A stretch of DNA of 61,423 nt, filler included, from Jimgerdemannia flammicorona (Eukaryota), in assembly GCA_003990765.1 (NCBI GenBank). It is 3 parts of 3 records of this genome, joined end to end, with 100 filler letters (N's around TTAATTAATTAA, not from the genome) between each part and the next. Parts side by side here need not be neighbours in the genome. Positions count along the whole stretch, not along the records: positions 41,022 to 61,423 come from RBNJ01001692.1; 2 more parts are not named here. One strand, 5' to 3'. Under the pieces are notes generated by a model. It did not search any database. It had not been told where the DNA came from and saw only the letters and a program-made list of their open reading frames with translations. The number at the start of each line of letters is the position of its first letter. Position 1 is the first letter of the stretch. Below are positions 4,339 to 61,189 of this stretch, piece by piece. Position numbers and translations under genes: made by a program.

Positions 4339-4352
4339 TCCTTCCCCCCTTA
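4339..4352 (-). other. Polypurine tract of element A
   Basis: Minus strand reads AAGGGGGAAGGA immediately before the 3' LTR TGTAATAG. Confidence 0.85.
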
Positions 4353-9210: not shown

Positions 9211-9529
9211 CTCCTTCTTGATGGTATTGAGCTCTTCATCCTCATTGTTGTCCCAATTGCTGTCAGTCTCCTCGAAGTCAGTTTCTCCCCATCCTTCACA
9301 AGGAGGGTTGTCTTGTTTGGGTTCCTCAGTCTGTTGAGCTTGGCACTTCTCAGATTGAATTTTGAAAACTTTGGAGAGATATGTATGGCATTCACCAATA
9401 TGTTCCATGCAGTACATTCAAATAGAATGAGAGCATCATCCACATAGTGCATAACCATCTGCAATTCTCTTATACCAGTTTTCATCATCTTCCTTCATAG
9501 TAGTGACCTTTTGACTGGGAGGTTTGTTG

Positions 9530-15382: not shown

Positions 15383-15623
15383 GGTAATGGTGACCCCAGA
15401 ATGATGACATCAGCATAGAAGACAGCCTTTCCTTACAAGCCACCAGATTGGAGTACAAGAAGATTATATGATATACAAAATGAGCAATGATGACCAACTG
15501 TGAGTCATTATGACCACAGTATAAGCATCTTGAGGAATTTAAAGAAGGATCAAGGAACTGTAGTAGCAGTAACCAATAAGACCCACCAATCCCAAAATAG
15601 CTTAAAGACTTACTACAAACAAA

Positions 15624-16817: not shown

Positions 16818-16834
16818 GTCTCTTGTATACTAGA

Positions 16835-16985
16835 TAATACCAGCACTAATATTCTGAGGTGACGCAGAATTGTTCTAGCACTGGTATTTTGATGTAATAC
16901 TAAATAATACCAGTACCAGTATTCTGATGTGATACTGAATTATACTAGCATTCTGAACATATACAACCATCAGTACTGACTCTGG
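16835..16985 (+). repeat. Degenerate ~35-bp tandem repeats in U3 of family-C LTR (also 55665-55815, 60730-60880)
   Basis: About four units like taataccagcacYRgtattYtgaKgtRaYac lie upstream of the LTR TATA/AATAAA. Confidence 0.7.
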
Positions 16986-20410: not shown

Positions 20411-20511
20411 ANNNNNNNNNNNNNNNNNNNNNNNNNNNNNNNNNNNNNNNNNNNNTTAATTAATTAANNNNNNNNNNNNNNNNNNNNNNNNNNNNNNNNN
20501 NNNNNNNNNNN
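20411..20511. other. Assembly gap with TTAATTAATTAA spacer
   Basis: N-runs around the same linker as at 40922-41021. Confidence 0.95.
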
Positions 20512-20561
<50 letters not shown>

Positions 20562-20563
<2 letters not shown>

Positions 20564-30001: not shown

Positions 30002-30041
30002 CCTAACCCTACCCCTACCCCTACTCCTACCCCTACCCCTA
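30002..30041 (+). repeat. Telomere-like hexamer tract CCTAA(CCCTAC)n
   Basis: cctaa ccctac ccctac ccctac tcctac ccctac cccta directly abuts the LINE 3' end. Confidence 0.8.
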
Positions 30042-31800
30042 TAAATATATGATAAAAGAGAAATAATGGTGTTTAGTTGCCTCTTTATCAGTATCAGTTC
30101 AATATCTTCTCTACTTTTTCACAATTTCTGATACCTTTGATTATATAAGAAATATACTTGTTTTTATTTAGTACTTTCTTTCTTTTGTTATCTTCAATAA
30201 GATATTATTTAATATATTATGGACCATATATGGAGTTGGCTAACTTTGGGTATTAAATGCCAGTATAAGTTACCTACAGATCATCAGTATCTATAGTAGA
30301 GCTCTCTGAGCTTTGGGGAGCTTTCTAGTAAGTATAGTTGTAGTATAGATAACTGTTTTTTAGGTAGAGTTGGAATGAGATAGGAGATGACTATTACAGA
30401 TAAGTAGAAAGATGATAATAGTAGACCAGTAGGATATTAGACTGAGGGCAATCATCATAGTTAGAATCGATATTATCTCAGTAAGACCTTTGGATTAACT
30501 GATAGAAGGTGAGATAGTGTAGAAGTCAGTATCTTGACTATACTCACTAAAACCAAGAGTTGACATAGTAATACAATTAAGGTCTATAGACTTATAGAGT
30601 GGGACCTTCTTTATTTAGTAGTATCTAACTAGAACTGGAAGCTGACATAGTAACATAATTGAGGTCTAGAGGTTCAAAGAGTGAGAGTAGGGCTTTTTCC
30701 AACCTTAGTCTATATATTAGTCCTTTTGAGAGAGTCCTATATATAAGTCCTTTACTTACTAACTCTAAATCTACTCTATTTTCTATTGACTAGTTGGTAG
30801 GTTTTTTGTTATCTTGAGTCTTAGTTTGGAGTTTGGGGAACTATTTCTTATTGAGTCTCAGTATTATTAAATCAGATAAATAGGTGTGCTCTTAAATATA
30901 GTCATGATAATCTAATCCTGATGAATAAACAAGTGTAGTTTATATAGTGAGAGTCCTATATCTAACATATATAGTGAGAATAGTAGAACTATAGATATCG
31001 CCCCTTTCTTTACTATCTTACTGATCATAAGATTTGGTAGATGACTTTCCAAGTTCCCTTTCCTCTATTATTATCCCTTCTACCTCAGGTTAGTTTACTG
31101 TACCTATATAGGCATTATGAGAGGAGGGCAATAGTGATGAGTTATCTCTTTATTGGTGTCTGATCAGTGTCTTCTCAACTTTTTCATAGTTTCTGGTACC
31201 TTCACCTACATCTGGAGTACATCTGTTTTGGTGTAGTACCTTCTTTCTTTTGCCATTGCCAACAAGGTACTATCTCAGTATGTCTTGGGCTATATAGAGA
31301 GTCAGCTGATCTTGGGCATCAAGTGCTTAGTATAGGTTACCTGTAGGTTCTCGGTATCTGTGGTGGGGCCCTCTGGCTTTGGCGAGCTTCTTGGCAAGTG
31401 TGGTTCTGGTATAGGTGACTGCTTTTCAGATGTTGTTGGGATGGGAGGGAGATGGCCATCACAGGTAGGAGGAAGGGCAATAATGGTGGACCAGTAAGAT
31501 GCCAGACTGGTGGTGGCTGTCAGAGCTGGAGCAGATGCTGCTTCAGTGAGGTCTTTTGATTAGTGCAGTGCAGTTAGGTGGTAGGTGTCACTCTTAGCTT
31601 CTTTTGGTAGTTAGATGGGTTAGGCCCCAGTCATCAGGAGGGATCAGGGGGCCCAAGGCTACCCATTTCAGGCATCTTGGCTATACTCAACTGGAACTGA
31701 GAGCTGATATAGCAATGTGATCAAGGCCTACAGACTTGAGTAGTGGAGTATTGGGGATTTTCTCCCACTTCATGTTTAAGTCCTTTACTTACCTCGACTG
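30042..31800. repeat. Two tandem decayed copies of the unclassified repeat at 19237-20410
   Basis: 30042-30995 matches ~19350-20300 and is strongly AT-shifted; 30996-31800 matches ~19240-20075. Confidence 0.75.
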
Positions 31801-31860: not shown

Positions 31861-34800
31861 CTTTCACTGGTAACATTCAGGTGACACAAGACTCAGGCAA
31901 TACTTTTGACAACATTGGGTGAAAGGCGACTAGCAATATGGAAAGCAATGAACATACAGGTATGCATACTAGGTTGGATGGACCTAGGGCCTTTGACTAG
32001 CAGTAGGTGAGAAGGGGTTATGACCTGGAGATAGGGGCCTTCGGAGGGCCAAAGAGTGGAGAAGGCTCTGGAGGGGGACTGGTGTTCATTGGCAATAGAG
32101 GAAGATCTGATCTCCCAAGCTTCACAGACAAGGTTAAGGAGAGTGGGTGGCTGGCTGGTACTAGGGCTAGTGCTGCTGAGGGTAAGGGTAAGGTGAGCCT
32201 TGGGAGGGGGGGTGGTGCTCTGGCTGGGAGTACAGGCATAGGGGCTGGAGGTGCTGTGGCTGGGGGTGTGGCTGTTGATGAGAGTGTGACGGGGAATCAG
32301 GAAAAAAAAAAAAATGTGACAGCTGATGGCCAGGTGGGGTAGGGGTTCCCGATGTGGAAGGGGGACCTGGGAGATAGTATAATGGGGCTGGCAGTGACCC
32401 CATTGGTCAAGAAGTCAATCTCGGAGTTTGTAGTGACCTTGTACTTCTGGAGCTTGGCAGTGATGGCAAGGATGGTTCTGGGGCTTGTTTCAAAGCAGGT
32501 GGCTGGGGCAGCCTCAGTGAAGTTCTTAAAGGGTCTGGAGGGGATCGAGGTGGGCTTTGAGGAGGCAGGCCTACTGGATGAGACACTGAGGACTGGTGTT
32601 GTGGTTGGGGAGGTAGTGGTCCCCATGGTGCAGTGCTTGTGATAGGACTCCAGGGTGGTGCAGCTTCTGGTGAAGAGGGTGCCCATGGTGACTAAGGAGG
32701 AGACTAGGAACAGGGTGGAGGAGGTGATGATTGAGTATGGTGATGTGGTTGACATTGGCTTTCAGGTGTAGGAGGGGACAATGATCAGGATGGGTGACAT
32801 TGATGTCAGGATTCAGCTGGTGGGCAAGGAGGCCATGGGGAAGACAAGTGACTGGCCTTCTGTGCTGATGTGGGGGGCATTCATCTGTAAGGTGTTGAGG
32901 GTGAAGGGGAGTGAGGAGGAGGAGGAAGACTTGTTAGAGGTACTGGAGGAGATGTGTGGAGCTGTGGAGAGGAGGGCAAGGGTCTGGAAGATGTATGAGG
33001 AGTCGACACATCTGAAGGTTGTGGATAAGAAATACATCTGTACTGACAGAAAGCAGTAGGAGCAGGCACAGGGGCGCAGGAGGCAGAGAGAGCTACTTGT
33101 AAATATGAAAGTAGAGGCAAAGCAGAAGGCAGTGGAAGCTGAAGGGTCTGGGGGTATCAAAGCCAGTGTTTGGGCAAGTAAAGAGATTGGGAAGGTGGAG
33201 GTAGGCAAGGAAGGGGCTGAAAATATACCAAGCAAGGAACTCTATACCAATGGCACTTTTAAGGTCTGAGAGCAGGAGCTGGATGCAACCCCCCCCCCTC
33301 TTATCAGGAGGAGCCCAGCTGGAAAGAGATGGACAACAGAGGATATACTGATGAAGGGGACCCAGCGAGTGCACTTTGGGGTCCCTGATGTGGAAAAAGG
33401 GGGTCAGGTGATGGCGGTTGGTGAGGATGAGCTGGTGGATGTCCCTGAGGAGGAGTGGGATGAGGCTGCCAGTGTAGGGGCTGACACCACGATGTTGGAG
33501 GTAGGATGGCTGGGGACTCCAGGAGGGAAGGAGGTGGAGAACTTGCTGTGGATGAGCAAGGTGATGGATAACCTCATGGCTAAGACTTTAGGGGAAGTGG
33601 ACCTGCAGATAATGCCTGAGGAGCATTGGACACAGATTTTGCATAGTGAGAGAGTGGTGGAGGGAGATTTTTTCGATTTTTCTGAAGGAGGAGGGATATG
33701 AGATTGATGAGGTAAGGAGGGCTGATCTGGTAGTAGTTGCTGGTGAGCAGGTGGCATACTGTTGGATAGAGCAGTATGGTTTGCAGTTCTAGCAGGAGGC
33801 CTGTCTAGAATATCATGAGAACTTTGAGGAGCAAGAAGATGGGGCAATGGTAGAACTTCTAGGAGGGTTGGAGGCACAGAAAGCAGGTGAAAGAGAACTA
33901 GCTACTGATCATAACTTGGATTTGTTACAGGAGGAGTAGGATGTGGAATTGTAGAGGGTGGGTTCACAATATAACTTTTTTTCTCTTATGAATAGTACAA
34001 CAAACATTTTCTCTTTGAATGTGAATGGGCTAAGGGGATCTGGGTGGTATAAGAACATTTTTAATTGGCTCAAGAGATTGGAGGCTGATCTCTTTTTACT
34101 GCAGGATATTTGGTGTAAGGATGAGGATGATTGGGTTGAGTGGACTAGGGAATGGGGTGGGGCTACTGCTTGGTTTCAAAAAGTAGTGATTCTGGTGAGG
34201 AAGGGTAGAGGAGACTTAGAGGGTATTGGGAGCTGGAGTGATCACTTGGTCTGGGGAGATTGACATCGGCCAGGGTAGGAGTCGGTGAGGGTTGGCTCTT
34301 GCTACTGCTCTGTGGTTAGGGGTGAGAGGATTGCATAGATTAAGGAGCTGCTGGAGGAGGGTATTCTCTTGGCGGAAGGGGTTGATGTGCTTGGGGGGGA
34401 TTTTAATATGGTTCGGGATCAGCATCTGAACTGAACTGATAGTGGGAGGAGTACAGAAGGGAGAAGTGGAGGCCTGGATACATAGGAGGAGGTGGAGCAG
34501 TTGAGCTCCTTAGGGGATATGGGCAGAATATGATGGGGCAACTCCAGGGTCTATATACATTGGGTGAATGGTTTAGGTATAAGGATTGACTGGATTCTGA
34601 TGGCAGAATGCTGGGGGTCTGATGTCTGGAAGGTATTAGAGGTGGAATAGTGCCCATGGTCTGATCACTGAGGACTGTTGGGATAGGGGTAGTTTGGGGA
34701 GAGTGGAGATGGACCCAGACATTGGTGCCTTAACTCCTCCCTGCTGGCTGAGAAGGAGTTGTGGGATACATGGGTAGAGGAGATTCTGACAAAAGTTTCT

Positions 34801-35061
34801 TGCTAGAGGTGTGAGAGTTTATCAGTGGGTGTCTGTTGGATGACATTGAAAGAGACTGTGAGGGTCTATTGGGGAGGGGCTGGGAGAGAAGCTGGGAGAT
34901 AGAGGAGGAAGTGCATGAGGTGTACTTCCAATAGGCTGAGGAGACTACAAATGGATTGGGCTGGTTTGCTTACTTCTGATGGAGTGGAGGATTGGAGGTT
35001 AGCATAGATTAAATTGGAGATAATGGAGCTGCAACAGATATTGAGAGAAGAGAAGGAGGTG
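31861..35061 (+). mobile_element. L1/Tx1-like LINE, older copy (5' end, ORF1, APE part of ORF2), cut by the next copy
   Basis: Starts with the same gtaacattcagg 5' end as 35062. ORF1 and MNSTTNIFSLNVNGLRG APE are homologous, with many stops. Confidence 0.9.
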
Positions 35062-35141
35062 CTTTTCTCCAGTAACATTCAGGTTACACAACCCTTTGGC
35101 AACACTTTCGACACAGTTTCTGGAGAAAAGCTACTAGTATC

Positions 35142-37172
35142 ATGGCGACCAACGAGCATCTGGAGGTGCATACTGGGCAGGGTGGCCCTGGAGCATTTGA
35201 ATGGCAGCAAGTTGGGAGAGGCCCCGGCTTGGGGGGAAGTATGAGGGGCCTGCTGGCGGGGGGCCGTGGTGGAAGAGGGGGTGGAGCTGGAGTTCAAGGG
35301 TCCGGCAGGGTGAGCTTTGCGGAGAAGGTGAAGGGGGGTCAATAGGGAGCTGGACTGGAGAGCTGGCTGAGAGGGGGGAAGGTACCGGTGGCGGCTTCCA
35401 GGCAGCAACCACTTGGAGGTGCCTCTCTGGAGGGCCATAGGAGTGGAGCTGGGGGGGTAGTGGCTGGGGCGGGGACTGCTGATGGGGGTGTGATGGGTGA
35501 TCTGGAAAAAAATCTAGATGGGACTGCTGATAGTGAGCCGAGCAGTGGGAAGGGCACGAGGCCCGGGGACCTGGTGGATGGTGTAACGGGGCTGGCGGTG
35601 ACTCTGTTACTCAAGAAGTCGATCTCAGCATTCGCAGTCACGCTGTGCTTCCAGGGCTTAGCAGTAACAGCAAAAATGGTGTTGGGGCTTATTGCTAAGC
35701 AGGTGGCAGGAGCGGCTTCGGTGAAGTTTCTGAAGGGACTGGAGGGGGTAGAGGTAGGATTTGAGGAGGTGGAACCGCTGGAGGAGGCGCTGAAGGTTGG
35801 GTTAGTGGTTGGGGAAGTGTATGTTCCAATGGCGAGGTGTTTGAAATGGGATCCGAGGGTGGTCCAACTGCTGGTGAAAGGAGTACCCATGGTGACAGTG
35901 ATGGAGACGAGGAAAAGAGTGGAGGATGTCATGGCGGAGTATGATAAGGTGGTAGATATCAGATTCAGGGTCTGGGAAGGGACTGCGCTCAGGACTGGGG
36001 ATGTGGATGTGAGGATTCGGCTAGCTGGGAAAGAGGCTACCGGGAAGACGAGGGACTGGCCTTTGGGATTGGTCTGGGGGGCTTTCCTGTGCAAGATGAT
36101 GTGGGTGAAAGGGAGTGAAGAAGAGGAGGAAGATTTATTGGAAGCGCTGGAGGAGCTGGATGGGGCTGTGGAATGGCGAGCTAAGGCCTGGAAGACTTTC
36201 GAGGAGTCGACACTCCTGGAGGTGGTGGATGGAAAGAGGATTCAAGTGGACAAGGTGCAGTGGGAAAGGGCTCAAGGGCGGAAGAGGCAGAAGGATTTGC
36301 TGGCCAAGCTGGGGGGTGGTCATCAGAAGGATGCAAGCATGAAGATGGGTACAGAAGGGGCCAGAGCGAGTGTCTGGGCTGGTGAGAGGAGTGGGAACAA
36401 AGGGGCAGGGTCCGGAAAGGCTAAGGAGGTAGAGATTAGAGACCTATATGCTGACGGCACCTTGGAGATTTGGGATGACGGCTGGGAGAACTCCCCCACC
36501 CCTTCCCCTCTAATCAGGCGTGGCTCAGCTTCCAGGAACAAGCCTGGGGAGGACGTGACGATGCTGGGAACCCAGCAGGTGAAATTCAGCATTCCGGAGG
36601 CATTGGATGGGGACCAAGTGGGGGCAGCAGGAGAGGAGGAACTGGTAGATGTCCCAGAGGTGTGGGATGAGGACGCGAGTGCGGGGGCAGACACCACGAT
36701 GCTGGATGGAGGGAGGCCGGCAACCCCTGGTGGTAAGGAGGTGGGGAACCTACTTTGGATGTGCCGGATGATGAATAACCTGGCGGCAGACGAGCTGGGG
36801 GAGGTGGACTTGTGTGGGATGGGTGATGAGCACTGGATGAGAATTTTGCAGGGGGAAGGAGTGGCAATGGCACTGAAGGCAGAAATTCTTGCGGTGTACC
36901 TGGCGGAGGAAGGGTATGAGGTGGATAAGGAGAGGGAGGCGGAGTTGGCAGTGGTTGCTGGGGAGAAGGCTGAGTACTGTTGGAACAGGCGTCATGGGTT
37001 GCAACTTTGGCAGGAGGCTTACATCGAGTACCATGAGGAGTTTGAGGAGAAGGCTGATGAGGAGATGAATGAGCTGTTGGCTGGACTGGAGGCTCAGAGG
37101 GCCGAAGAGGAGGAGGTGATGGCTGAACATAATCTGGACACAGCACAGGAGGAGAGGGGCATGGAGCAATAG
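35142..37172 (+). pseudogene. LINE ORF1 (Tx1-type RRM-like domain, acidic C-terminus), one premature TAG at 35343-35345
   Basis: ORFs 35142-35345 and 35388-37172 are in one frame. VQLLVKGVP...YDKVVDIRF...LRTGDVDVRIRL resembles L1/Tx1 ORF1 RRM. Confidence 0.85.
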
Positions 37173-37202
37173 GGATTGATTGGGAACAAACCATATTTTA
37201 TT

Positions 37203-40200
37203 ATGAACAGTACAACCAACATTTTTTCTTTGAATGTGAATGGGCTTAGGGGTGCAGCTAGATGCAGGAACATTTTTCTTTGGTTGAAGGGATTGGAGGC
37301 CAATCTCTTCCTCTTGCAGGATGTCAGGTGCGAGGATGATGCTGATAGGTTGGAATGTACTAAGGAATGGGGTGGCATGGCGATTTGGAACAGCAAGGTT
37401 GGGATTCTGGTTCGGAAAGGCAGAGGGGAGATAAAGGATGTGAGGAGCTGGGGGGAGAGACTGGTCTGGGGTGAGTGGATTCAAGCAGGTTGGGAGCCGG
37501 TCACAGTTGGCTCCTGTTACTGCCCTGTGGTGCGGGGGGAGTGTGTGGATTGGGTGAAAGGGCTACTGGAGAGTGGGATCCTTGCTGAAGCTGGGTTGGA
37601 TATGCTTGGAGGAGATTTCAATATGGTTTGGGATGTATGACTGGATAGAACTGATGGAGGATGGGGTGCGGAGAGTAGGAGTGGGGGGTTAGCGACATGG
37701 GAGGAGGTTGAAAGGCTAGGGGCACTGGTGGATGCTGGTAGGGAGCACTGGGGGGACAGGAGAGTATATACGCATTGGGCTGGTGGTCTGGGGACAAGGA
37801 TTGACTGGATTCTGACAGCCGACTGTTGGGGCCACGATGTCTGGAAGGTGTTAGAGGTTGAATGGTGCCCGTGGTCAGATCACTAGGGTCTCTTGGGACA
37901 GGGGTTTTTGGGGGTAGTAGAGATGGGCCTGGACATTGGTGCCTGAATTCCTCCTTGTTGGATGATGAGGTCCGGTGGGAGGAGTGGGCGAAAGACATTC
38001 AGCTGAAGGTGGTGAATTGGCGGCAGGAAGGGGCAGTGATTGGGGTTTGGTGGATGAGGATGAAAGAGATGGCCAGGATGTATTGGAGCGAGGCTGGCAG
38101 AGTGGCTGGGAAGCAGCAGAGGCAGAAAGTACATTGGGCTTCTACTAGATTGGCTAGGCTCCTGGAGGAGTGGGCGAGACTGGCTGCAGTGGAGGAAGAA
38201 GAGGATTGGAGAATTACGAGGGTGAGGATGGAGGTTGGGGAACTGCAACAGGTGCTGCGGGAAGAGGAAGAGTCAAGGGTGCAAGGTCTGGTGGCTTGAC
38301 TTCGTTGGCAGGGGGTGGAGGAAGGGGAGAGGCCTTCCAAGTTTCTCACAAGGACACTTTGGGTGAGAAGGGTACAGCAGCGGTGGGAAGGGGTACTTGA
38401 CTCAGATGATGTACTAGTGCATGGTGTACAGGACATCCTTGGAATGCTGAAGGCATGATGGAGTGGATTGTGGAGTGAGGAGGAGGGTGGGGCAGATGCT
38501 ACCGCCATTGACCAAACATTAGAAGATTGGTACCCACTGCAAGCTGAGGGACTAGGTGATCTGGTGATGCCAGTAAAGGAGGACGAGATCCACCAGGTTC
38601 TTGCTGCAACAGCCTTGGGTACGGCGTCTGGGAAGGATGGCCTCCCCTGGGATTTCTGGAAGCGAATGGTTGGAGTCCCAGGCATATTGGGGGAGTTGAC
38701 AGCACTGTGTGACTCTATATTGCAGTCAGGGAGATGGGTGGGGGAGCAGGACCTTGGGCTGGTGACACTGCTCTATAAGAACAAGGGAAGGCGAGAGGAT
38801 TGGAGGAACTGGCGGCCGATAATGCTGTTAGATATAGACAGGAAGTTGGTGACTAAGGTGGTGGTCGCAAGGCTACAGAAGGTGGCCCAGCAGATTGTGG
38901 GTGTTGAACAGAGGGGCTTCATTGGGGGTCAGCTTATTAGAGATGGCACAGCCTGGGTACATGGAGTTATTGAAGATGCTCGAGCCTGTGGACTAGATGG
39001 GTGTCTTGTCTTCTTGGATGAGGAGAAGGCTTATGATGGGGTACGGCGGGTCTGGCTGGTGAAAGTATTGGATAGAATTGGAGTTCCGGCCTCATTTCGG
39101 TTGGCAATGGTCAGCCCTACTGGAAAGGAGTAGGGCTGCGCTGGTGTGCAATGGACATCGAGGGGTGGCTTTCCCGTTGGGCAGGGGAGTGCCCCAGGGG
39201 GACCCACTGTCCCCCATTTTGTATGCTCTTTCTTTGGAACCTCTCATGGATAGGATTTGGTGGAGGATCGTGGGACTATCTATCTATGGAGTTGGCTGGA
39301 AGGTTGGAGCCTTTGCAGATGACATGGTGGTTGGTTTGGGGGTGACTGCAGATGTCAAGGAGCTCCAGAAGACAGTGGAGTAGTATGAGGCGAACTCTGG
39401 GGCAAAGCTGAATTGGCACAAGTGTGAGACAATGGTGCTGGGCAATGGCTTGGTGGGTGGGGAAGTTATTGGAACAATTGTCCCCACCGGAGAGGCAGTG
39501 CGGTACTTGGGCATCTATTTGTTGGTCTACAGGTCTGTTTTGCCCAGGCTGTAGTGGGAGCAGAGGATTGGAATTTGGGAGGAAGACCTGTGGGGTTGGG
39601 GAGGTAGACACTTCTCTCTGGCAGGAAGGATCTCGATTTTGAATGTTTACTGGCTGCCGAAGCTGTGGTATTTGGCCTATCATCTGGACTTCCCAGCCTG
39701 GGTGGTGAAGAGATTAGTAAAGGTGGCCAAGGGATGGATTTGGGCTGGCAGACGGAGTCAGATTGGTTGGGAGACTCTGTCCCTACTGGTGACAAGAGGT
39801 GGTCTTGGGCTAGTGGACTTCCCCAAAAGACTACACTGCTTGCGGGCTTGGTGGCTGAGGAGGGCAGTGGAGTTGCATAGAGGGGGCTGGGTCCCCTTGC
39901 TGCAGAAGATATGGGAGGGGAGGACATCACCTAGAGGCTTGACTGGCGATCTTCTTTCATTGGTAGGCTTCAGAACACTGCACAACTGAGATATAAAGGC
40001 TTCTGGTGGGGTATAGCCGAGGGGGCACACCACATTGGTATTCGCTGGCAAGGGGATGAGGGGGAGAGAGCTTGGGGCCCAGCGATGTGGAGATGGGATT
40101 GCATTCTTCTAGGAGGCATGCCTTTACTGGAGTTCAACATTAGTGATGGCATCGAATGCCAAAGGGGACCAGGCCTGGATCTGTGGCCTAGCAGTTGGCA

Positions 40201-40858
40201 AGGAGTTGGAATTGGTGAGGAGTGGGACTGGCATGGGGTTTGGACCTGGAGTGCCGCAGTGAAAAATTGGATGCCGCCGAAGTACTGGATAGTCTGGTGG
40301 CGTGTGCTGAGGAGGAATGTGATGCTTAACTTCCACTCAGGACACCTTGTTGTTGGGGGCTGCTTTGACTGTGAGGAGTGCCATAATGTAGGGCAGGAAG
40401 GGGGATTGGTACAGACACCAGAACATTGGCTAGGGGAGTGTGAGGTGTTGGGAGACTTTTGGCAGGCCATTGGGGACCACTTGGGGGTAAGGCGTAGGGG
40501 TGATGATGTACGGGGGAGGTGGGAGGACCTGAGGGATCGATTGATAGGAGGGGTAGGGGAAGAGTGGATTACGCTAGGCTGGGCATTGGCTATTTGGGTT
40601 GGGCTGGCTGGACACTGGCTATTTGTATTTGTGGAGGAGAAGCGACAGAGCTTGGGGAGCCAGTTAGCAAGGTGGCAGTTCCTTATGGAGGATACCTTGA
40701 TGGGATGGTGGCTTGGCTGGGGGCTGCAGGGGGGTCAGAGGTGCCGCTTAGTGGTGAAAATCTGTGGTCAGAGTGGTGGGAGAGTTGGAGTTGTTGGCGA
40801 GAGGGTGGTCTTTATACATGAGGAGGTGGGGTGGGGCCCCCCGATGGGGATTGGTTAG
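37203..40858 (+). pseudogene. LINE ORF2 (APE-RT-Zn finger) with stops/frameshifts
   Basis: SLNVNGL, LLQD, GGDFN, IDW, SDH; WRPIMLLDIDRKL, LDEEKAYD, GVPQGDPLSP, AFADD, YLG; CEEC...EHWLGEC. Confidence 0.93.
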
Positions 40859-40921
40859 TGGGTGGTTATATTGTATACGTATTCATAGACTGGTAATAAA
40901 GACGGAGTCCAAGAGACTATA

Positions 40922-41021
40922 NNNNNNNNNNNNNNNNNNNNNNNNNNNNNNNNNNNNNNNNNNNNTTAATTAATTAANNNNNNNNNNNNNNNNNNNNNNN
41001 NNNNNNNNNNNNNNNNNNNNN
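40922..41021. other. Assembly gap with TTAATTAATTAA spacer
   Basis: N-runs with linker. Confidence 0.95.
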
Positions 41022-41038: not shown

Positions 41039-41356
41039 CTCTGGAGACATGGAAATGTCTATCTCCTTCAGAGCGTAAAGTTCGTCCTCGTCAGCTCCCG
41101 GCCAGTGCACGGTGGCCTTCCAGACTCTAGCAAAGCCACCCTCGCCCAAAATTTCGAGGTTCTGAAACCTGTTGAAGGGGATCCAGAGGAGATATTCGGT
41201 GAGTTCGGACACGTTCAGTGTCTCGAGGTGGGCAGCGAGTTCGGCGTCGTCTTCGGGGAATGTTTCCTTGTGGGATTGTATTTTCTGCTTGTCCTCCGGG
41301 CTGAGGGTGCCTTTTGCAAACAGGTCCTTTGCATCCTTGAGGCGGTCCACGTCCAT
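41039..41356 (-). CDS. Protein kinase (TKL-like), first exon; remainder lost in gap
   Basis: WIPFNRFQNLEILGEGGFARVWKA...YALKEI (Gly loop and VAIK-type Lys). Probable GT donor (GAG|gtgaat) at 41038. Confidence 0.8.
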
Positions 41357-41490
41357 TTCAGTTTGAAGGGAACTGCTGCGCTAGGAAGGGTTCCGTGGGT
41401 ATATATATATATACGCGCGGGGGGGTTGAGTCACGTGAGGCGGGCGTCCACCAAGCCACCGCTTCCTTCTCGCCCTTGTGTCGCATCCCC
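41357..41490. promoter_or_regulatory. Compact bidirectional promoter
   Basis: 134 bp between divergent ATGs, with a (TA)n TATA-like tract at 41400-41413 and palindromic TCACGTGA at 41431-41438. Confidence 0.55.
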
Positions 41491-43260
41491 ATGGCTCTCT
41501 TCGACGACATCCCAAACGAAATCCTCGTTCGCATCCTTATGAATGTAAACGATATCCGCAACATCCTCCACTGCGAACGTGTCTGCCATCGCTTCGCAGA
41601 CATCGTCCAGGATGACCACTTCAAGGCCTGCTGGCTGGTCACAAAGTTTGGCACTCGCAAAGCTCTCGGCTCCGCTGTTCTCCACAGCCTCAATGCTGGC
41701 CTCAAGACCGGCTACGAGAAAATGCTGAATGACAACGTTGCCATGCTACTCGTCTCCAAAGGCACAGACCTTCACGCCATCAAGGACCTCCCCCTCGTCT
41801 GGGCCGCCTCCAGAGGTCATTGCACCCTCTTCGCCCGCCTCCTCGACGCCCAAGCCCCCGAAACTGACAGAATGATTCCCGAGAACGCGCACCAGTCCCA
41901 CCTGAATTTTCCCTGGGCCGCCTCCATTTTGGGTTGGTACACCTCCCTCTACTCCATGTCCCCCTACCCGCGAGAGATCATCGGCCTGAGTGAGGCCTCC
42001 CCGCCTGCCAAACCCCTAGACTTTGCCCTACACGCCGCCTGCGCCGCGGGCATGGACCACATCGTCCGCCAGATTGTTGATCAGTCACGCATCCCCGTTA
42101 ATATCAACTCGTCGAACAGCTTTGCCCTCCGCGTCAGCACGGCAGGCGCCCACGTCAAGGTAATTGAGCTTCTGCTCGCGCGCGGCGCCCATCCGCACCA
42201 CGATACCTTTACTGTGTGCCTAGACAAGTACGATGACCACATCAAGAAGTCCGATCCAGCCCGCGCCTCCGTCTACCGCGACATTTTTGCCCTCCTCTTC
42301 GCTGCCGGTGGCTGCTTCGCCTCTCGGCAGCAGGCCATCCACCTCCTCGAACGCCTCTACCACAACTTCGATGCTACATGGGTCGACAACATGTGCCTCG
42401 TGTCCGCCAGCGACCAATGCGAACAGGATGACCTCGCCCACCTAGCCCTCGAGATGCTCCGCGACGACAATCCGGGCATTGCGGTGTCCCTCCTCTCCTG
42501 CGTCCACGTTCCAAACCGTCTCGTCCGCCTCATCACAGACGTCTCCAGAAACGTCATTGCGCACAACCTCCTCTCCCCAACCCCGGATCTCCTCCTCGTT
42601 CTCGCCATCCAGGAGCGTAACCCGGAGTTTCTCCACCACCTCCTCCTCCACGACCACACCCGCGCCCGCCTCTTCGCCCACCCCTGGTGCATCTCCCTCG
42701 CCCACTCCGCCCGCCCGAGCCCGGAGATCCTCCACATCTTCACGCTCTTCAACTTCAAGCCATTTCTAGTCCACCAGGTGGTTTTCCGCGACACCGATTC
42801 ATGCGTACATCACCTTGACAATTTCCTCGCCCACTGCCCGACGGCTTCCCGCCAGCGCAGCCTCGACACCGCCCTCAGGCACCACGTCCGTCTCGACGAC
42901 GTTAAGGTCATCAATGCGCTTACCGCGCTGGGGGCGTCGGCCGAGTCCGATGGCGTGCAGCGCCTGCTCAATGATGCGGCCGAGCTGCAGAGACTGCAGC
43001 CGGAGACGCTGGCGGCACTGGTGCCAAAGGTGAAGAGGCTGAGACCGAAGTTGATGGCATTGCTGGCCAGGTCAAGCGGCGTGAGATTGAGGGAGATTTT
43101 TGAGTCGGGCAGGATGGATTGGGAGAGATGGGGAAATCAGATGGTTGAGGCCGTGATCAGGGCCGAGAATCGGGGGGCCGTGGAGGTCATATTGAGCGGG
43201 AGCTATGCTAAGTTGGATATGTCAATTGGTGGAGGAGAGTGGCACTCAGAGGAGGAATGA
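41491..43260 (+). CDS. F-box and ankyrin-repeat protein (589 aa, intronless)
   Basis: N-terminal F-box DIPNEILVRIL...VCHRFADI; ankyrin-like LPLVWAASRGH, FALHAACAAG, FALRVSTAGAHVKVIELLLARGA, TALRHHVRLDDVKVINALTALGA. C-rich third codon positions. Confidence 0.88.
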   Translation: MALFDDIPNEILVRILMNVNDIRNILHCERVCHRFADIVQDDHFKACWLVTKFGTRKALGSAVLHSLNAGLKTGYEKMLNDNVAMLLVSKGTDLHAIKDLPLVWAASRGHCTLFARLLDAQAPETDRMIPENAHQSHLNFPWAASILGWYTSLYSMSPYPREIIGLSEASPPAKPLDFALHAACAAGMDHIVRQIVDQSRIPVNINSSNSFALRVSTAGAHVKVIELLLARGAHPHHDTFTVCLDKYDDHIKKSDPARASVYRDIFALLFAAGGCFASRQQAIHLLERLYHNFDATWVDNMCLVSASDQCEQDDLAHLALEMLRDDNPGIAVSLLSCVHVPNRLVRLITDVSRNVIAHNLLSPTPDLLLVLAIQERNPEFLHHLLLHDHTRARLFAHPWCISLAHSARPSPEILHIFTLFNFKPFLVHQVVFRDTDSCVHHLDNFLAHCPTASRQRSLDTALRHHVRLDDVKVINALTALGASAESDGVQRLLNDAAELQRLQPETLAALVPKVKRLRPKLMALLARSSGVRLREIFESGRMDWERWGNQMVEAVIRAENRGAVEVILSGSYAKLDMSIGGGEWHSEEE

Positions 43261-45829: not shown

Positions 45830-46715
45830 TCACTTGTTACGGGCATTGGTTCCTCCGGTACTAGAACCACCTCCCCCCGTCGTTGGACCCCCGGTTGGAC
45901 CCCCGGTGGAACCCCCGGTTGAACCCCCGGTTGAACCCCCGGTTGAACCCCCGGTTGTAACCCCGGTTGGAACCCCCGTTGAACTCGCTGAGTGACTCCC
46001 GGTGGTAGGGGCAGCACTTTTGTCGCGTTCGCGAGCCCCGTCCTTGGCGACTTCGGCGTAGGTGGCACTTTTCTCTCCGGCACCCCCAGTGAGTCCGCGG
46101 CTCCTCTCGGCACCATGCTGAATGGAAGCGGCTGGGGGCCTCTTCATGCCGTGGCTGGTGGGAGGGCCGGTGCCAAAGAAGTAAGAGACGACGGTACGGG
46201 TTGCGTTGTAGATCCCGCGGGTGATGAGGTAGCCACCCAGGACAATAGCTGAGACACAGAAGGTGAAAAAGAGGACGGGAACGAGGGCCACAAGACCGAG
46301 ACCCAGGGCGCCGGCGACGACGAGGAGCCAGGCAACGATGGTAAAACCCGTGATACCGGTTGTGGCGAGGAAGGCGAAAGACGAGAAGACAAGAAGTGGG
46401 ATGCCGGAAAGAATGCCGAAAATCGACGAGAATGTGCGAACCGCGTGGCTGGGGGTGGACAATTGGCCAATGCAGGTATCGGTAAGGTTGCGAAAATATT
46501 CCGATAGTTCTCCATGTGATAGGACTCTACTCTATTGATGATACTCACTATTGCCAAGCCGAAGAGGCCATGTTCTTTGTCTTGCCCCAGATGAACCCAA
46601 TCCTACCCGAATGGACGCCGAGAGACTCAGCCGCCTTGTGCGCCTTCTCCTGTGTTATCAAGGAAAGGTCTTTCGCACCGTAGGGATCCATGGTTTTTGG
46701 ATTTGGGGTAGACAT
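45830..46715 (-). CDS. LDAF1: Promethin/LDAF1-like lipid-droplet membrane protein (2 exons: 46715-46549, 46448-45830; ~261 aa)
   Basis: A GTGAGT...CAG 100-bp intron keeps the frame. Long hydrophobic hairpin region LSGIPLLVFSSFAFLATT...LGLGLVALVPVLF; G/T/S-rich tail; TCACGTGA at 46801-46808 upstream. Family assignment is by motif recall. Confidence 0.7.
45884..45984. repeat. 12-bp coding minisatellite (GAACCCCCGGTT)~8 encoding TGGS repeats
   Basis: Directly visible tandem units. Confidence 0.9.
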
Positions 46716-54586: not shown

Positions 54587-56122
54587 TGTAACAGTGACCC
54601 CAGAATGATGACATCAGCACAGGAGATAGTCTTTCCTTGCAAGCCACCAGATCAGAGCACAAGAAGATCATATGGCATATGAGATGAGCAATGATGACTA
54701 ACTGTGAGTCATTGTGACCACAGTACAAGCATCCTGAAGAATATAAAAGAAAGATCAAGGAACTATGGTAGCAGTAACCAACAAGACCCACCAATCCCAA
54801 AATAGCTCAAAGACTTACTACAAATGAAATGCCTGCTGCCCACCAAACCTCAAGGTCAAAGAACCACCAAGGCACTTTGGTTGAAGAAAGGATATTCCAA
54901 GACATCAGAAAAGCCATGAGAACTCACTCAAGAAGGACTCCTAGTATCAACCTGGGTACTGCAGACTCTTATCACTTTATTCTCTACTGTTGTAAAATGG
55001 AAACAAGGATCACTATTGCTACTGAATGCCTCTAAATGTGGCAGGAGTATGAAATAGGAAACCTCCTCTGCCAGGAGTTCCCACAGGCCAGCCCTCAAGA
55101 GCTACAAGATACTACTCCCATAGATATATGCGAGACAAGAACAGCTAAGAAGATCTATCAGATCTTCAGGCATGTATCATAGTCGATTCCCAACTTAGAG
55201 TATATTAGAGTCTCAGACTTCAGAGACCTATCATCTCACCATATCAATACACTAGAAGCCAGAGTGGCTACAGAAGCCCAGTCCACTATCACCCTCAATA
55301 GTGATGAAGTAGAAGACTTCTGGTACCCCATTCTTCAGAACAACCCAGACCAATTCCTGTAAGGATTGATCTCAGTATTCCAAGGCCCAAGCATCCAGGT
55401 TAGACCTCTCCAAGACCTCACATTTGTCTCTTATTTTGTAGAAGAGAACCTCATAGACTAGAGAGCTCCAGATCTTGTTCCCAATTTCTCTACCGAACAT
55501 AATGACATCATTGGTGATGATATCATCCTGCATGACATTGACATATATAAAGCACACAAATCATACAATGATAAATTTGTGAATCTCATCTCCTTCAGTG
55601 ATAATGATAATGATGAAGCCCCCATGATCCTAAACTTTCTGCTCTAAGTTCTTTATTACACTAAATAATGCCAGCACCAGTATTTTGATATAACACTGGA
55701 TAATATCAATACTGGCATTCTGAGGTGACATGAAATCATTCCAGCACCAGTATTCTGATGTGATACTAAATTATACCAGCATCCTGAACCTGTACAACCA
55801 TCAGTGCTGACCCTGAAACTTAGTAGTTTTAGTTATTAGAATTTATATTTAGCTTTATATCTTAGCAACTATTGAAATATATTTTATATAAATACCCCTC
55901 TTATTTCCTCTGAAATAAAGTTAGTCAAGTTCACTTACACACACTTCCTTGCAAGCCATCTAAGAGATAACAAGATAGTTAAAGATAAGAAGTTTGAGGA
56001 CTATAAGACCTTGGGAAGGCACTTCAATAAGAACTTGCTTATAACAAACTTGAGTTAGTCTAAGAGATATATCTTGAAGAGAATCTGGTATATTTGAAGG
56101 ACTCAGCGACTACTATGTGACA
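54587..56122 (+). repeat. 5' LTR of element C
   Basis: Direct repeat of 59647-61189 and 15383-17294. Confidence 0.95.
54829..55647 (+). pseudogene. LTR-embedded accessory ORF (272 aa) in 5' LTR of C
   Basis: Single 819-nt frame with stops only at positions that are Q or W in sister copies. TATAAAAG lies ~85 nt upstream. Confidence 0.8.
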
Positions 56123-56244
56123 ACTTGGTACTCATTGGCTGATGATTCAAGATGAATCCCTCACTTTCAAGCTAAAAAATGAACAACTTCTACAATAACT
56201 ACCCTAACTACAAGAGTCACCCCTGTAAGAATTCAAGATAAAAT

Positions 56245-58140
56245 GGAAATGTGCCCCCCACATTTTATGGATATACTACTGAAGAGTCAATCCTGACCTT
56301 CATTGAAGACTTTGAACAATTCACCACCATACAAGTCCTTGGTGTAGATGCTCAATTGGCCCTTCTATCAGTCAGCCTCAGAGGACCTGTCAGAGACAAG
56401 TTCAATATAGCCACCATTGCTGATGCTAGTGCAGTCAAACTTGCCAACATGAAGGTCTTTCTCAGAACAACATATTATACTGAAGAGATCAAGCAAGCTC
56501 TCAAGGATCAACTCAATACTATCTGCTAGGGAATTAGTGAAGATCCCAACTCATTCTATACCTGAATCTACCACCAGATTGTCTTGGCTAGCTATGATGA
56601 CCACCTCAAGGAACAAATAGCGGATTCAGCTTTCCTCAAAGGAGTTCACTCTGAAATTGCCCTAGCAATCTGGTCTACCCCAGCTGCACTGACCCTTGAT
56701 CAGAAAGTGGTCTTTGTACAGAGATATTAGACTGCTAGATACCCTACCAAACACTCAATAGAGAAAATAACTGGCATCAAGATGGAGCCATCAAAGCCAA
56801 CTAGTATCATACCCACCATAGTTGTAAACAGACAACCAACCCCACCTACCCCCAAGACAGCCAAAGCTGACCCAGTGGAAGAACTTGCCAAGTAGTTCAC
56901 TGAGATAACTGCACACCTTGGTGATGTTGTTAGAGAAGTCTGAAGTACCAACAGGAGACCAGTGCAGAGATTTGCAGCTACTATAGAAGAATACAATATC
57001 ACATACTTCAGATGTGGAGAAGAAGGCCACTATGCAAAGAGTTGTATAACTGAAATAAGACACAAAGCCCAACCAAGTAATGCTAGCAAAACCAGAGAAC
57101 AAACCAATGCAGTAGTCATCGAGGAGATTGGTGATATTGATGATGAAGAATACTATGAGGAGCTTGAATTCTACCCTGCTACTGAAGGTACCAGAACCTG
57201 GTCTAAGCTCTATGACAAGAAGAGCAACAGTAAGCCAGTTGGAAGACCAAAGAAGATCCCAGCTGTCACTATTTAAAGCAAGACCCAACCTAAGAAGATT
57301 GATCAAGATATAGAGTTAGATGAAGCTGCCTACTAAATCATTGAAGATACTACTCCAGTCTCAGAAGAAAGTGAAAGCAAGAAGGAACAGAAGCTGTACA
57401 AGACTAAGATCCACCAGTATGATATCTACAAGAACCTCAAGGAATAGAAGGTCAATGCTACTTTTGGACAACTAGCCAAAGTCTCTGCCTTTAGACAGCA
57501 GTTGAGAGTAGAACTTGCAACTACTGCCAAGAATCAAGAGTACAAGATTGTAGAAGCTCACAATGCATAAGAAGAATCTGAGAACTCAGGTGAAGAATCC
57601 GAAGACCAGTGCAAGACATCAGCCTATACCCCATGTCAGATCGAAGACTGTATCTTTGATGCTATCATTGATACTAGTGCTGGAGGATACCTCATGAGCA
57701 AGAAGGCAATTTACTGCCTAGATTAGAACATTGAAGAGTCTACTAAGATGGTCTATATTATAGCAGATAGTATATGAGCTACCTCCCTTGGCAAAATCTG
57801 AGAAGTTCCCATCAAGATAGGAGGAGCTACTATCCCAGTAGACATAATTGTTATAAGCGCCACCAACTATGATATCCTCATTGGCAACCAATGGCTTCAC
57901 AAGACCAAGGCCATCATTGATCTCAATGCCCAGAAGATACAGATCAACTATAGAGGAAGAAAGGTATGAGTCTCTATCAATGTCCACAAAGGAGTTCTAC
58001 CAGACATGGAGAAAGGAGATGAAGAAGACACAGAGGTCTTCATGCACTTGATGAACAAAAACAAAAGCAAGATACCTAAGCTCACAGATGAGCAGTGGTA
58101 CAATAAGATCATCGATGGCTATGCCCCTCAAGGAAGATGC
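56245..58140 (+). pseudogene. gag: gag-protease of element C
   Basis: PPTFYGYTTEESILTFIEDFE capsid-like start; YFRCGEEGHYAKSC knuckle; AIIDTSAGGYLMS and DILIGNQWL protease motifs. Confidence 0.85.
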
Positions 58141-58144
58141 CCAA

Positions 58145-59330
58145 CCACCTCAAACCCTGAACAATCACTATCATCAACTGGACTTAGAAACAGTTTGAAC
58201 TAGACAACACTATACTCAGAAAAGGAGAAAAGCTAGTAATACCTGAATATAAGAAGTATCAAGTAATGAAGGAAGTATATGAGCAAGGACACTTAGGAGG
58301 AACCAACACATATGACAAGATAAGAAGAACCATATGGTGGCCCAAGATGGAAGAAGACCTGCACCAATTTGTCAAAGGGTGTGACAAGTGCCAAAAACAG
58401 AAACAAGATCAGCAAGACCAGGTACCCAGGTCATCAAGAATTGAGCCTATCCCCTTCTACCACATCACAATGGATATTATTGGACTGCTATCAGTAACAC
58501 TATCAGGAAACTGCTATATTATAGTTATTGTAGACCTCTTTACCAAATAGATAGAGGCAGAAGCATTACAAGAAGCCAATGCCCTCTCTATAGCCGACTT
58601 CCTGTACCAAGAAATCATCTGCCGCTACAAGACACTAAAGCAAATTACAACAGATCACAGTATGGAATTTGTCAATGAATTCTATAAGATAATGTATCAG
58701 AAATACAAGATCCAGCACATCAAGACCACCACGTACCACTCTTAAGGAAATGGACAGATAGAGAGAACCAATACGACTCTCAAGAACATCCTAGTAAAGA
58801 TCTCAGAGACATATGAGAATTGGGATAACTATCTCCCAACTGCCCTCTCTGTCCTATGAGATATATGGTCACAGAGCACACACTTTACCCCAAGGGAGCT
58901 GCTCTTCAGAGAAGAAGATTCTGATGAAACCTCAGCTACAAATCTAGACCTAACTTGGAGATAGGTTGATGCAGAAATCTGGGGACTATACCAAATCAGA
59001 AAGAAGGCTGAAGATTATATCACCAAGTCATAAGCACTAACAAGGAAGAATGTAGAAAAGAATCACAAGGCCCTAGAACTCATCTGAATTGAAGAAAAGA
59101 TTCTACTGTATCAAAATATGGTAGAAGCCTTATAGTCACAAAAACTGGAGCCCAAATAGGAAGGACTCTTCTATGTGTAAGATATCAAGAGAACTACCTT
59201 CTGGCTTAGAAAAATCTCAGAGACCATACTGTCTACCACAGTACATAGGAACAGACTCAAGAAGTACCACAAACCTATACAAGAGAAGCAAAATATGATG
59301 ACCACCCATGAGGTTTTAGTCTGTGAATCA
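58145..59330 (+). pseudogene. Integrase of element C
   Basis: GHLGG...WWPKM...CDKCQ; MDIIG; VDLFTK; TTDH; GNGQIER; KLEPK*EGLFY (GPY/F module). No chromodomain seen. Confidence 0.9.
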
Positions 59331-59646
59331 TAACAGTATGTTCTGTGACCAGTAGGCTATCTGTCTGGACCATTCTCTAAGGAATATAGTACTGGCAACT
59401 ACTCATCTATGAGACTTTTGAAGTCAGAGGAGTTCAAACCATCAACTGATTAGTCAAGATCAGAATCAGGCCCTTGCTCTATATAAAGGGAGTGACCCTT
59501 CACCATCATACCAAAATACAAAGGGAAGATACCAGCCCATAAACACTACTTTTTGATCCCTTGCCAGAGGTTATAGGATCAGCAAATTTTTCAGAACTGG
59601 ACCAATGAATAAGGATGCTCAGAAAGATCCTTATTTAGGAGGAAGA

Positions 59647-61189
59647 TGTAACAGTGACCCCAGAATGATGACATCAGTACAGGAGACAGCCTTTCCTTAT
59701 AAGCTACCAGATCAGAGTATAAGAAGATCATACAGCATACGAGATGAGCAATGATGACCAACTATGAGTCATTGTGACCACAGTACAAGCATCCTGAAGA
59801 ATATAAAAGAAGGATTAAGGAACTGCAATAGCAGTAACCAATAAGACTCACCAATCCCAAAATAGCTCAAAGACTTACCATAAATGAAATGCCTGCTACC
59901 TGCCAAACCTCAAGGTCAAGGAACCACCAAGGCATCTTAGTTGAAGAAAGAATATTCCAAGACATCAGAAGAGCCATGAGGACTCACTTAAGAAGGACTC
60001 CTAGTGTCAACCTGGGTACTGCAGACCCTTATCACTTTATCCTCTACTGCTGTGAAATGGAAACAAGGATCACCATTGCTACTAAATGCCTCCAAATATG
60101 GCAGGAGTACAAAATAGGAAACCTCCTCTACCAGGAGTTCCCACAGGCCAGCCCTCAAGAGCTACAAGATGCCACTTCTATAGATATATATGAGGCAAGA
60201 ATGGCTAAGAAGATCCATCAGATCTTTAGGCATATACATACCATGGTCAATCCCCAACTTAGAGTATGTTAGAGTCTCAGACTTCAGAGACCTGTCATCC
60301 TGTCATATCAATGCACTAGAAGTCAGGGTGGCTATAGAAGCCCAGTCCACTATCACTCTCAATAGTGATGAAGTAGAAGACTTCTGGCACTCCATTCTTC
60401 AGGACAACCCAGACCAATTCCTATAAGGATTGATCTCAGTATTCCAAGGCTCAAGCATCCAGATTAGACATCCCCAAGACCCCACATTTGTCCCTTATTT
60501 TATAGAAGAGAACCTCATAGACTAGAGAGCTCCAGATCTTGTTCCCGATTTCCCCACCAAATGTGATGACATTATTGGCAATAACATCATCCTGTATGAC
60601 ATTGATATACACGAAGCACATGAATCACATGATGATGAATTTGCAGATCTCATCTCCTTCAGTGATGATGATGATGATGATGAAGCCTCCATGATCCTGA
60701 ACTTTCTGCTCTAAGTTCTTTGTTACACTGAATAATGCCAGCACCAGTATTTTGATGTAACACTGAATAATGCCAGCACTGGCATTCTGAGGTAATGTGA
60801 AATCATTCCAGCACTGGTATTCTGATGTGACACTGAATTATATCAGCATCCTGAACCTGTACAACCATCAGTGCCAACTCTGAAACTTAGTAGTTTTAGT
60901 TATTGGAATTTATATTTAGCTTTATATCTTAGCAACCATTGAATTATATTTTGTATAAATATTCCTCTTATTTCCTCTAAAATAAAGTCAGTCAAGTTCA
61001 CTTATACACACTTCCTTGCAAGCCATCTAAGAGATAACAAGACAGTTAAAGATAAGAAGTTTGAGGACTATAAGACCTTAGGAAGGCACTCTAATAAGAA
61101 CTTGCTTATAATAAACTTGAGTTAGTCTAAGAGATACACCTTGAAGAGAATCTGGTGTATTTGAAGGACTAAGTGACCACTACATGACA
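59647..61189 (+). repeat. 3' LTR of element C (contains accessory ORF copy 59889-60714 with a small frameshifting duplication near 60235)
   Basis: Direct repeat of the 5' LTR. ORF-track fragments 59889-60272 and 60190-60426 are two frames of the same ORF. Confidence 0.95.

Follow-up and report, generated by a model that had tools for sequence, protein, structure and literature searches.

Our analyses of a 61,423 nucleotide stretch of DNA from Jimgerdemannia flammicorona (assembly GCA_003990765.1; the whole stretch is referred to below as the window) have identified an accessory open reading frame (ORF) that lies wholly inside the long terminal repeats (LTRs) of one family of putative Ty3/Gypsy elements, here termed family C. 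The window holds two insertions of this family, viz. an element at 54587–61189 that has both of its LTRs and a second, truncated insertion that is represented by its 5′ LTR and adjoining internal sequence. Each of the three LTRs carries a copy of the ORF at the coordinates that a first-pass annotation of this DNA had given, and the TATA box upstream of the ORF, the repeats of about 35 bp and the second TATA/AATAAA pair downstream of it were also found where that annotation had placed them (Table 1). The annotation had further raised the possibility that the true LTR boundaries exclude the ORF. They do not, because the copy in the 5′ LTR occupies LTR positions 243–1061 of 1536, starting 242 nt inside the repeat and ending 475 nt before its end, and the three LTR copies share their first base.

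The family C repeats are real LTRs. In a self-comparison of the window, 54587–56122 and 59647–61189 form a direct repeat with 89.5% identity over 1543 columns, the two copies being 5060 nt apart, and the internal sequence of the truncated insertion (17295–19236) matches 56123–58075 of the first element. All three LTRs begin at an identical base (TGTAACAG, or GTAATGG in the third copy) and end in ...TGACA, with TG..CA termini, and the sequence upstream of them is unrelated in two copies and is the element's own internal region in the case of the 3′ LTR. A sequence resembling a primer binding site, TGGTACTCATTGG, is located at 56126–56138, which is 3 nt (ACT) past the 5′ LTR; the third LTR is followed by ACT and then by TGGTGCCCATTGG instead, and the spacing of ACT plus TGG after the 5′ LTR is common to family C and to a second family in the window (family A, described below). 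A purine tract (AGGAGGAAGA, 59637–59646), the candidate polypurine tract (PPT) of the element, lies directly 5′ of the 3′ LTR. Both flanks of the element read CTATATAT (8/8 match), but in a TA-repeat context, and the duplication in family A measures 5 bp; the flanks are compatible with a target duplication, the reading of which is blurred by the TA repeat.

The internal region of the element encodes gag, protease (PR) and integrase (IN), and comparison with family A indicates that reverse transcriptase (RT) and ribonuclease H (RNase H) are missing, as the similarity skips from the end of the protease at 57966 to the start of the integrase at 58251. As a result, the order gag-PR-RT-RNase H-IN is not readable in the family C copy itself. 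In the intervening gap (57970–58250), where RT and RNase H would be located, metagenome contigs diverge at 58133/58142. Because RT/RNase H are missing and the accessory ORF is broken, the element at 54587–61189 is a non-autonomous and doubly defective derivative.

The accessory ORF had originally been described as a complete gene, but no copy in the window is intact: that in the 5′ LTR has 4 internal stops, that in the 3′ LTR has 2 stops and a frameshift, and that in the third LTR has 3 stops and a 362-bp insertion. All of these 9 internal stops (9/9) coincide with a Gln or Trp codon of the intact relatives P0003, P0004, P0005, and P0007, and all are TAA or TAG, as C-to-T and G-to-A changes would give. 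The annotators had seen the stops as falling at different Q/W codons in different copies. This is correct for the codons and for the two independent family C insertions, which have no stop position in common; however, 2 of the 7 distinct positions (55360/60424 TAA and 55459/60523 TAG) occur in both LTRs of one element and not in the third copy. The open consensus that had been predicted is seen in the intact relatives, whereas a simple majority of the three window copies is closed at the two shared positions. Since these stops are common to its two LTRs, the element at 54587–61189 was probably copied from a template in which the ORF was already broken and probably transposed with a broken gene. 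The single-copy differences among the three LTRs are largely transitions (79/80, 65/67, and 124/159), and Arg residues of the intact relatives are often His (CAC/CAT) or Cys (TGT) in the window copy, which indicates CpG decay. Of 267 aligned residues, 186 of the copy at 54829–55647 are identical to those of P0004.

The 362-bp insertion in the third copy (15951–16312) has a T run at its start, corresponding to a minus-strand poly(A) tail, and a 15-bp duplication (ACAGCTAAGAAGATC) on its flanks. By these features it resembles a short interspersed nuclear element (SINE) or a 5′-truncated non-LTR retroposon, and a search for Rfam families returned no match. Related pieces are present at 91–158 (92.6%) and 40760–40921 (71%).

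A homologue of the accessory ORF is present in the family A element, where it is located outside the LTR. The LTRs of this element (3517–4338 and 11882–12702) are 92.4% identical, and on the minus strand the stop codon of the ORF (TAA, 4352–4350) is followed immediately by the PPT (GGGGGGAAGGA) and then by the start of the LTR (TGTAATAG), as the first-pass annotation had noted. In a translated search of the window, the homologue was detected at 5114–4524 (minus strand; tblastn E 5e-32). The family A and family C accessory proteins are identical at 69 of 197 positions (35%, ungapped; BLASTP E 1e-36), both start with MPA... and both end with ...LNF, and no alignment of the two ORFs was obtained at the DNA level. 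As the integrase segments of the two families show 30–35% identity (tblastx), the accessory protein is conserved about as much as the integrase. The LTRs of both families begin with TGTAAYAG. By eye, the translated frames of family A contain gag, dUTPase, PR, RT, RNase H, and IN with an SH3 and a chromodomain-like end, of which the dUTPase and the integrase SH3 alone were confirmed by Pfam. The dUTPase is located between gag and the protease (9439–9759, minus strand; PF00692, E 1.8e-15), and together with the Tf2-type integrase SH3 it presumably fits the fungal chromovirus-like elements.

Relatives of the accessory protein are few in number but include intact forms. A search of 5.8 billion proteins yielded 6 matches at E<=1e-3 among 2301 candidates, all of them unnamed or "hypothetical" and encoded on contigs of 600–1625 nt. 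The C-type relatives are 68–76% identical to the window copy; P0004 is intact and full-length (271 aa), and the frames of P0003, P0005, and P0007 are open up to the end of each. Among 1.84 billion cluster representatives, a profile search gave 8 matches at E<=1e-3, of which 7 are credible, the eighth being an ankyrin-repeat protein that we regard as spurious. No longer or fused forms were found, and none of 19 pattern matches in viral contigs proved to be a relative. A scan of metagenomes returned one locus, the 1535 nt contig L001, which encodes an intact family A-type ORF of 291 aa. In L001 the stop codon is followed by the tract GGAGGGAGGA and then by TGTAATAAG, reproducing the stop-PPT-LTR layout of family A; thus relatives with a PPT downstream of the ORF, which the first-pass annotation had proposed to look for, exist in family A and in L001. 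The window family A copy and the L001 ORF differ at 74, 62, and 115 sites at codon positions 1, 2, and 3, respectively, and the ratio of nonsynonymous to synonymous changes (dN/dS) between them is 0.23 over 260 codons. The synonymous excess and the open frames of the relatives argue that the accessory ORF is a genuine protein-coding gene under selection. Nine sequencing runs came up for the family (7 soil metagenomes and 2 of one organism, none of them RNA), with shares of 0.05–0.22, and mapping the reads of 4 runs to the window gave thousands of short family contigs; such contigs are found in soil metagenomes. Among the differences listed between contigs and window, most are T>C and A>G, i.e., the contigs have C or G where the window has T or A.

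The accessory ORF is accompanied by promoter-like signals that are partly shared between the families. The octamer TATAAAAG recurs at 59802 in the 3′ LTR and is mutated in the third family C copy, whereas the second TATAAA/AATAAA pair is kept in all three LTRs and the 35-bp repeat is present in the 3′ LTR in 3.4 copies (60721–60838). The distance from the upstream TATA box to the ATG is 87 nt in family C, 80 nt in L001 (where the octamer is the same) and 72 nt in family A (TATAAA), and the leader before the ATG, AAAGACTTACCACAAA..ATGCCTGC, is common to L001 and family C. Because the upstream TATA of family A and L001 is located in the internal region, it is not the genomic promoter in these elements, and we infer that the accessory gene is transcribed from it as an mRNA of its own. 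If the second TATA/AATAAA pair of family C is the genomic promoter and terminator, the accessory ORF lies, most likely, in the U3 (unique 3′) region of the LTR and the R (terminally repeated) region is short. L001 also contains a 28-nt motif (GTCAGGCGGAAC..TCAGAACA.AAG) both at 170–197, which is 100 nt 5′ of the TATA box of the ORF, and at 1481–1508 within the LTR. As none of 500 shuffles reached the score of this pair, the motif may be a shared regulatory site, which we treat as a lead and no more. A candidate duplication between the first 242 nt and the last 475 nt of the family C LTR was dropped, being marginal in one copy (1 of 200 shuffles) and absent in two (24 and 137 of 200).

Table 1. 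Positions of the family C and family A features in the window.
Feature	Position	Strand	Characteristics
5′ LTR, family C element	54587–56122	+	1536 bp; TGTAACAG...TGTGACA; based on pair identity, three-copy alignment and flanks
3′ LTR, family C element	59647–61189	+	Ends ...CATGACA; based on pair identity, three-copy alignment and flanks
Third family C LTR	15384–17294	+	5′ LTR of the second, truncated insertion; followed by internal sequence 17295–19236
Family C internal region	56123–59646	+	gag with zinc knuckle; protease region 57811–57966; integrase from 58251
Accessory ORF copy, 5′ LTR	54829–55647	+	Pseudogene of 272 codons and a terminal stop; 4 premature stops (55033 TAA, 55180 TAG, 55360 TAA, 55459 TAG)
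Accessory ORF copy, 3′ LTR	59889–60714	+	Frame shifted by 4 inserted bp near 60234; stops TAA at 60424 and TAG at 60523
Accessory ORF copy, third LTR	15624–16817	+	Stops at 15663 TAA, 15834 TAG and 16493 TAG; 362-bp insertion at 15951–16312; indels near the 3′ end
TATA octamer TATAAAAG	54742–54749	+	Candidate promoter of the accessory gene; 87 nt 5′ of the ATG
35-bp tandem repeat	55658–55781	+	3.5 copies located past the ORF, ahead of the second TATA; possible enhancer
TATAAA (55887) and AATAAA (55914)	55887–55919	+	Candidate genomic promoter and poly(A) signal
Family A homologue of the accessory ORF	4350–5177	−	2 internal stops; between integrase and PPT, outside the LTR
Family A PPT GGGGGGAAGGA	4339–4349	−	Immediately past the stop codon of the ORF
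Family A 3′ LTR	3517–4338	−	TGTAATAG...TTATTACA; partner 11882–12702; 5-bp target duplication ATGGG
Family A TATAAA	5244–5249	−	72 nt 5′ of the ATG of the family A ORF

The remainder of the window contains other repeats and some likely host genes. Beside the truncated family C copy lie two tandem copies of a ~5.1-kb repeat (20560–24851 and 25704–30008; 85.8% identical), which are flanked by 19246–19809 and 31000–31561 (78.7%); a translated search of the window found no homologue of the accessory ORF in these repeats. The regions 32241–37965 and 1633–3498 are GC-rich (52–55%) with a very strong GC skew (+0.47) and consist of ~2.5-kb units that are 65–68% alike, the third copy being inverted at 1633–3498; a frame of 608 codons at 35346–37172 matched no Pfam family. 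The positions 20412–20511 and 40922–41021 each consist of a pair of 44-nt N runs with 12 nt between them, and 40880–40921, adjoining the second pair, matches 78–119 at 95%. An ORF of 639 codons with F-box and ankyrin domains (41341–43260), whose nearest Atlas clusters are mostly from Ascomycota and Basidiomycota, and a Promethin-domain ORF at 45830–46531 on the minus strand (PF16015, E 2.7e-6) are likely host genes.

The accessory protein consists of about 270–290 residues. Its isoelectric point is 4.5–4.9 and the net charge of the C-terminal tail is −14 to −21; in the C-type protein the N-terminus is basic and Arg-rich. The maximum Kyte-Doolittle mean over 19 residues is 0.64–0.74 in three intact members, which leaves no membrane segment, and the protein is not env-like, as it lacks a hydrophobic segment. 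The motif F.DLI.F in the tail and LNF at its very end are conserved in the alignments. An AlphaFold model built from 12 sequences (mean pLDDT 55) predicts a helical core at residues 14–160 (block pLDDT 43–87, mostly >60) and a disordered C-terminal third. The protein matched no Pfam family and no PDB sequence at E<=1; its model, at this pLDDT, gave no Foldseek match in the PDB at E<=1e-3 and a best Z of 4.0 in a wide VIA search, and the ESM Atlas provided no lead at >=0.9 (best feature score 0.83, structure TM <=0.33). By these predictions it is an orphan family of soluble, acidic and mostly helical proteins. The basic N-terminus, the helical core and the strongly acidic, disordered tail with its conserved motifs suggest, as a tentative working guess, a regulator that acts in trans on the expression of the element itself; other roles, e.g., in particle assembly or counter-silencing, take the remaining probability.

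The explanation that we consider likely is that the ORF represents a genuine, lineage-specific accessory gene of a Ty3/Gypsy group, probably fungal, which in family C forms a cassette within the LTR, most likely in U3. In family A and L001, the gene is carried in sense orientation between the integrase and the PPT, and 72–80 nt 5′ of its ATG stands a TATA box of its own. The plus-strand priming site of family C is located upstream of the whole cassette, and because of this position the TATA box, leader and ORF belong to the LTR and are copied to both ends of each new insertion. The second TATA/AATAAA, after the 35-bp repeats, would serve the genomic RNA as promoter and terminator, and transcription of the accessory gene from its own TATA would yield a short mRNA that ends at the LTR poly(A) signal. 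The three copies in the window are pseudogenes that decayed via C-to-T/G-to-A transitions and insertions. A more specific version, in which the gene encodes a regulator with its own promoter (a Tas- or Tax-like activator or a Rev-like RNA factor) and family C LTRs, including solo LTRs and those of defective elements, serve as self-sufficient units that supply it in trans to the entire family, is speculative and in our judgment unlikely.

One alternative concerns the direction of the change in layout. The arrangement within the LTR may be ancestral, or the cassette may have entered an existing U3 by template switching or recombination, with family A having gained a downstream PPT and LTR start. 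We regard such a reverse course as possible, if on the whole somewhat doubtful. Just two layouts are known, with no outgroup to compare them with; the LTRs of both families start with TGTAAYAG, an integrase end signal that a new boundary would need wherever it arose; and no remnant of a PPT is found 3′ of the family C ORF. Set against these points, the ORF is outside the LTR in two of the three lineages with visible context (the window family A and L001), and in other LTR retrotransposons, according to excerpts of a survey, the common layout has additional sense ORFs placed between pol and the 3′ LTR (PMC7264820). The earlier idea of a captured gene stands insofar as the LTR houses an entire gene together with a conserved TATA that resembles a promoter, but its direction does not follow, since an upstream shift of the PPT, a downstream shift in family A and a move of the cassette into U3 cannot be told apart from these two families. 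The doubled dosage and the lasting expression from solo LTRs that the first-pass annotation envisaged would be conjectural; the window contains no solo LTR of the family, and all of its copies are pseudogenes. It is improbable, in our estimate, that the ORF is instead located in R, with the first TATA (54742) as the genomic promoter and an R of ~1.1 kb reaching to a poly(A) site near 55930, so that the ORF would be at both ends of the RNA and form the first cistron before gag. The first TATA (TATAAAAG) is the better match and its position is kept in relatives, and the second TATA and AATAAA, being 27 nt apart, would otherwise define a very short R; but the homologous TATA is internal in family A and L001 and cannot be a genomic promoter there, an R of one kilobase is unusual for LTR elements, and the 35-bp repeats just 5′ of the second TATA resemble a separate promoter-proximal module.

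The remaining alternatives concern the status of the gene itself. The ORF could be a decaying passenger that was functional in an A-like ancestor and became neutral LTR sequence in family C after the boundary shifted, as the broken state of the three window copies, the presence of 2 stops older than the insertion of one element, the loss of RT/RNase H from the element at 54587–61189, and the lack of constraint in dN/dS among the family C copies would suggest. We consider this quite unlikely, as C-type relatives are intact or open to their ends (P0004 with 271 aa; P0003, P0005, and P0007) and the stops in the window are all products of transitions at Q/W codons, typical of decay after insertion. 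A chance ORF or a transduced fragment of a host gene, for which the absence of a Pfam family or known fold and the small number of relatives could be cited, is most improbable, given that the ORF is conserved in two element families, in which its 3′ position and its termini (MPA..., ...LNF) agree, that dN/dS is 0.23, and that longer or fused forms and host-gene-like relatives were not found.

Several observations weigh against the preferred reading, viz. an accessory gene that forms a cassette in the U3 of family C. The assignment to U3 over R has the second TATA/AATAAA pair as its sole basis. The signal of a shared motif seen in L001 is absent in the window family A copy, where 69 of 200 shuffles reach the score, and marginal or absent in the family C LTRs (1/200, 24/200, and 137/200). 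Not one of the three family C copies in the window is intact (0/3), and the gene is dispensable in cis if, as is probable, its element moved with a broken copy. Values of dN/dS among the family C copies are 0.38–0.59; selection is not shown by them, as with a spectrum made up almost purely of transitions they are read as neutral decay, and their use as a sign of selection was discarded. The protein family is tiny (8 matches among 1.84 billion representatives), the in-LTR layout is seen in two insertions of one family in this window alone, with P0003–P0005 known as proteins alone, and confidence in the structure model is low (mean pLDDT 55).

Fungal LTR retrotransposons are usually described as gag-pol only, and whole or partial genes in LTRs are familiar from retroviruses (MMTV sag, nef, and foamy bel). 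The sag gene of mouse mammary tumour virus (MMTV) is an ORF within U3 whose product, Sag, is a membrane superantigen of a mouse retrovirus. Family C resembles it in having a whole ORF in the LTR and hence at both ends of the element; it differs in that searches with Pfam, Foldseek and VIA (the last two from a weak model with pLDDT 55) found no sequence or fold match, and in that the host is probably a fungus. The foamy virus tas/bel genes have an internal promoter and reach into U3, and Tax of human T-lymphotropic virus (HTLV) is associated with 21-bp repeats in U3. With these systems the accessory gene would share a 3′-terminal position with a promoter of its own, repeats in a putative U3 5′ of the genomic TATA, a motif (in L001) present in both the internal promoter region and the LTR, and an acidic C-terminal tail; the likeness is one of layout alone, these searches having found no homology, and the gene is known here from its sequence. 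Among internal accessory genes, that of the maize element Grande was reportedly found by Gomez-Orte in 2013 to be transcribed from its own promoter, and brtn of the Botrytis element Boty is said to go back to Zhao in 2011.

Additional ORFs that follow pol and precede the 3′ LTR, in either sense or antisense orientation, are known mainly in plants according to excerpts of two reports, in which brtn of Boty is one fungal case, antisense and internal, and the Grande gene is antisense and internal with its own promoter (PMC7264820, PMC8365987). The sense ORFs of this kind are termed aORF-3S, and their plant and insect cases are described, in excerpts, as env-like with membrane segments and spliced mRNAs (PMC7264820). 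Compared with aORF-3S as thus described, family A and L001 likewise have a conserved sense ORF past the integrase that ends at the PPT, but the accessory protein lacks a hydrophobic segment, its gene has its own TATA, and the family C ORF is not in the internal region. Grande and brtn, to the extent that these descriptions cover them, are similar in being orphan accessory genes located toward the 3′ end of a Ty3/Gypsy element, brtn being fungal and the Grande gene having its own promoter; the descriptions set them apart, as they are antisense and internal, whereas the accessory gene here is in sense orientation and, in family C, within the LTR. Searches of the open-access literature brought up no paper that describes a fungal LTR retrotransposon with a complete ORF housed in its LTR. 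On this comparison, the accessory gene reads as previously undescribed, and it would extend both the known sense additional ORFs and the U3-borne genes of retroviruses.

The significance of these results is that a conserved orphan gene, equipped with a signal that resembles a promoter, accompanies one group of elements and appears to have been absorbed into the LTR in one family, a gene-in-LTR layout that is otherwise known from a few retroviruses. As the protein has no known domain or fold, its function is a testable question, and should the regulator reading prove true, this would be the first system with a regulatory gene in the LTR to be described outside retroviruses. If the gene is expressed from the LTRs, the protein could still be provided by solo LTRs and by defective elements, genome annotation with masked LTRs would overlook the gene systematically, and the boundary between "regulatory repeat" and "gene" would be blurred in these elements.

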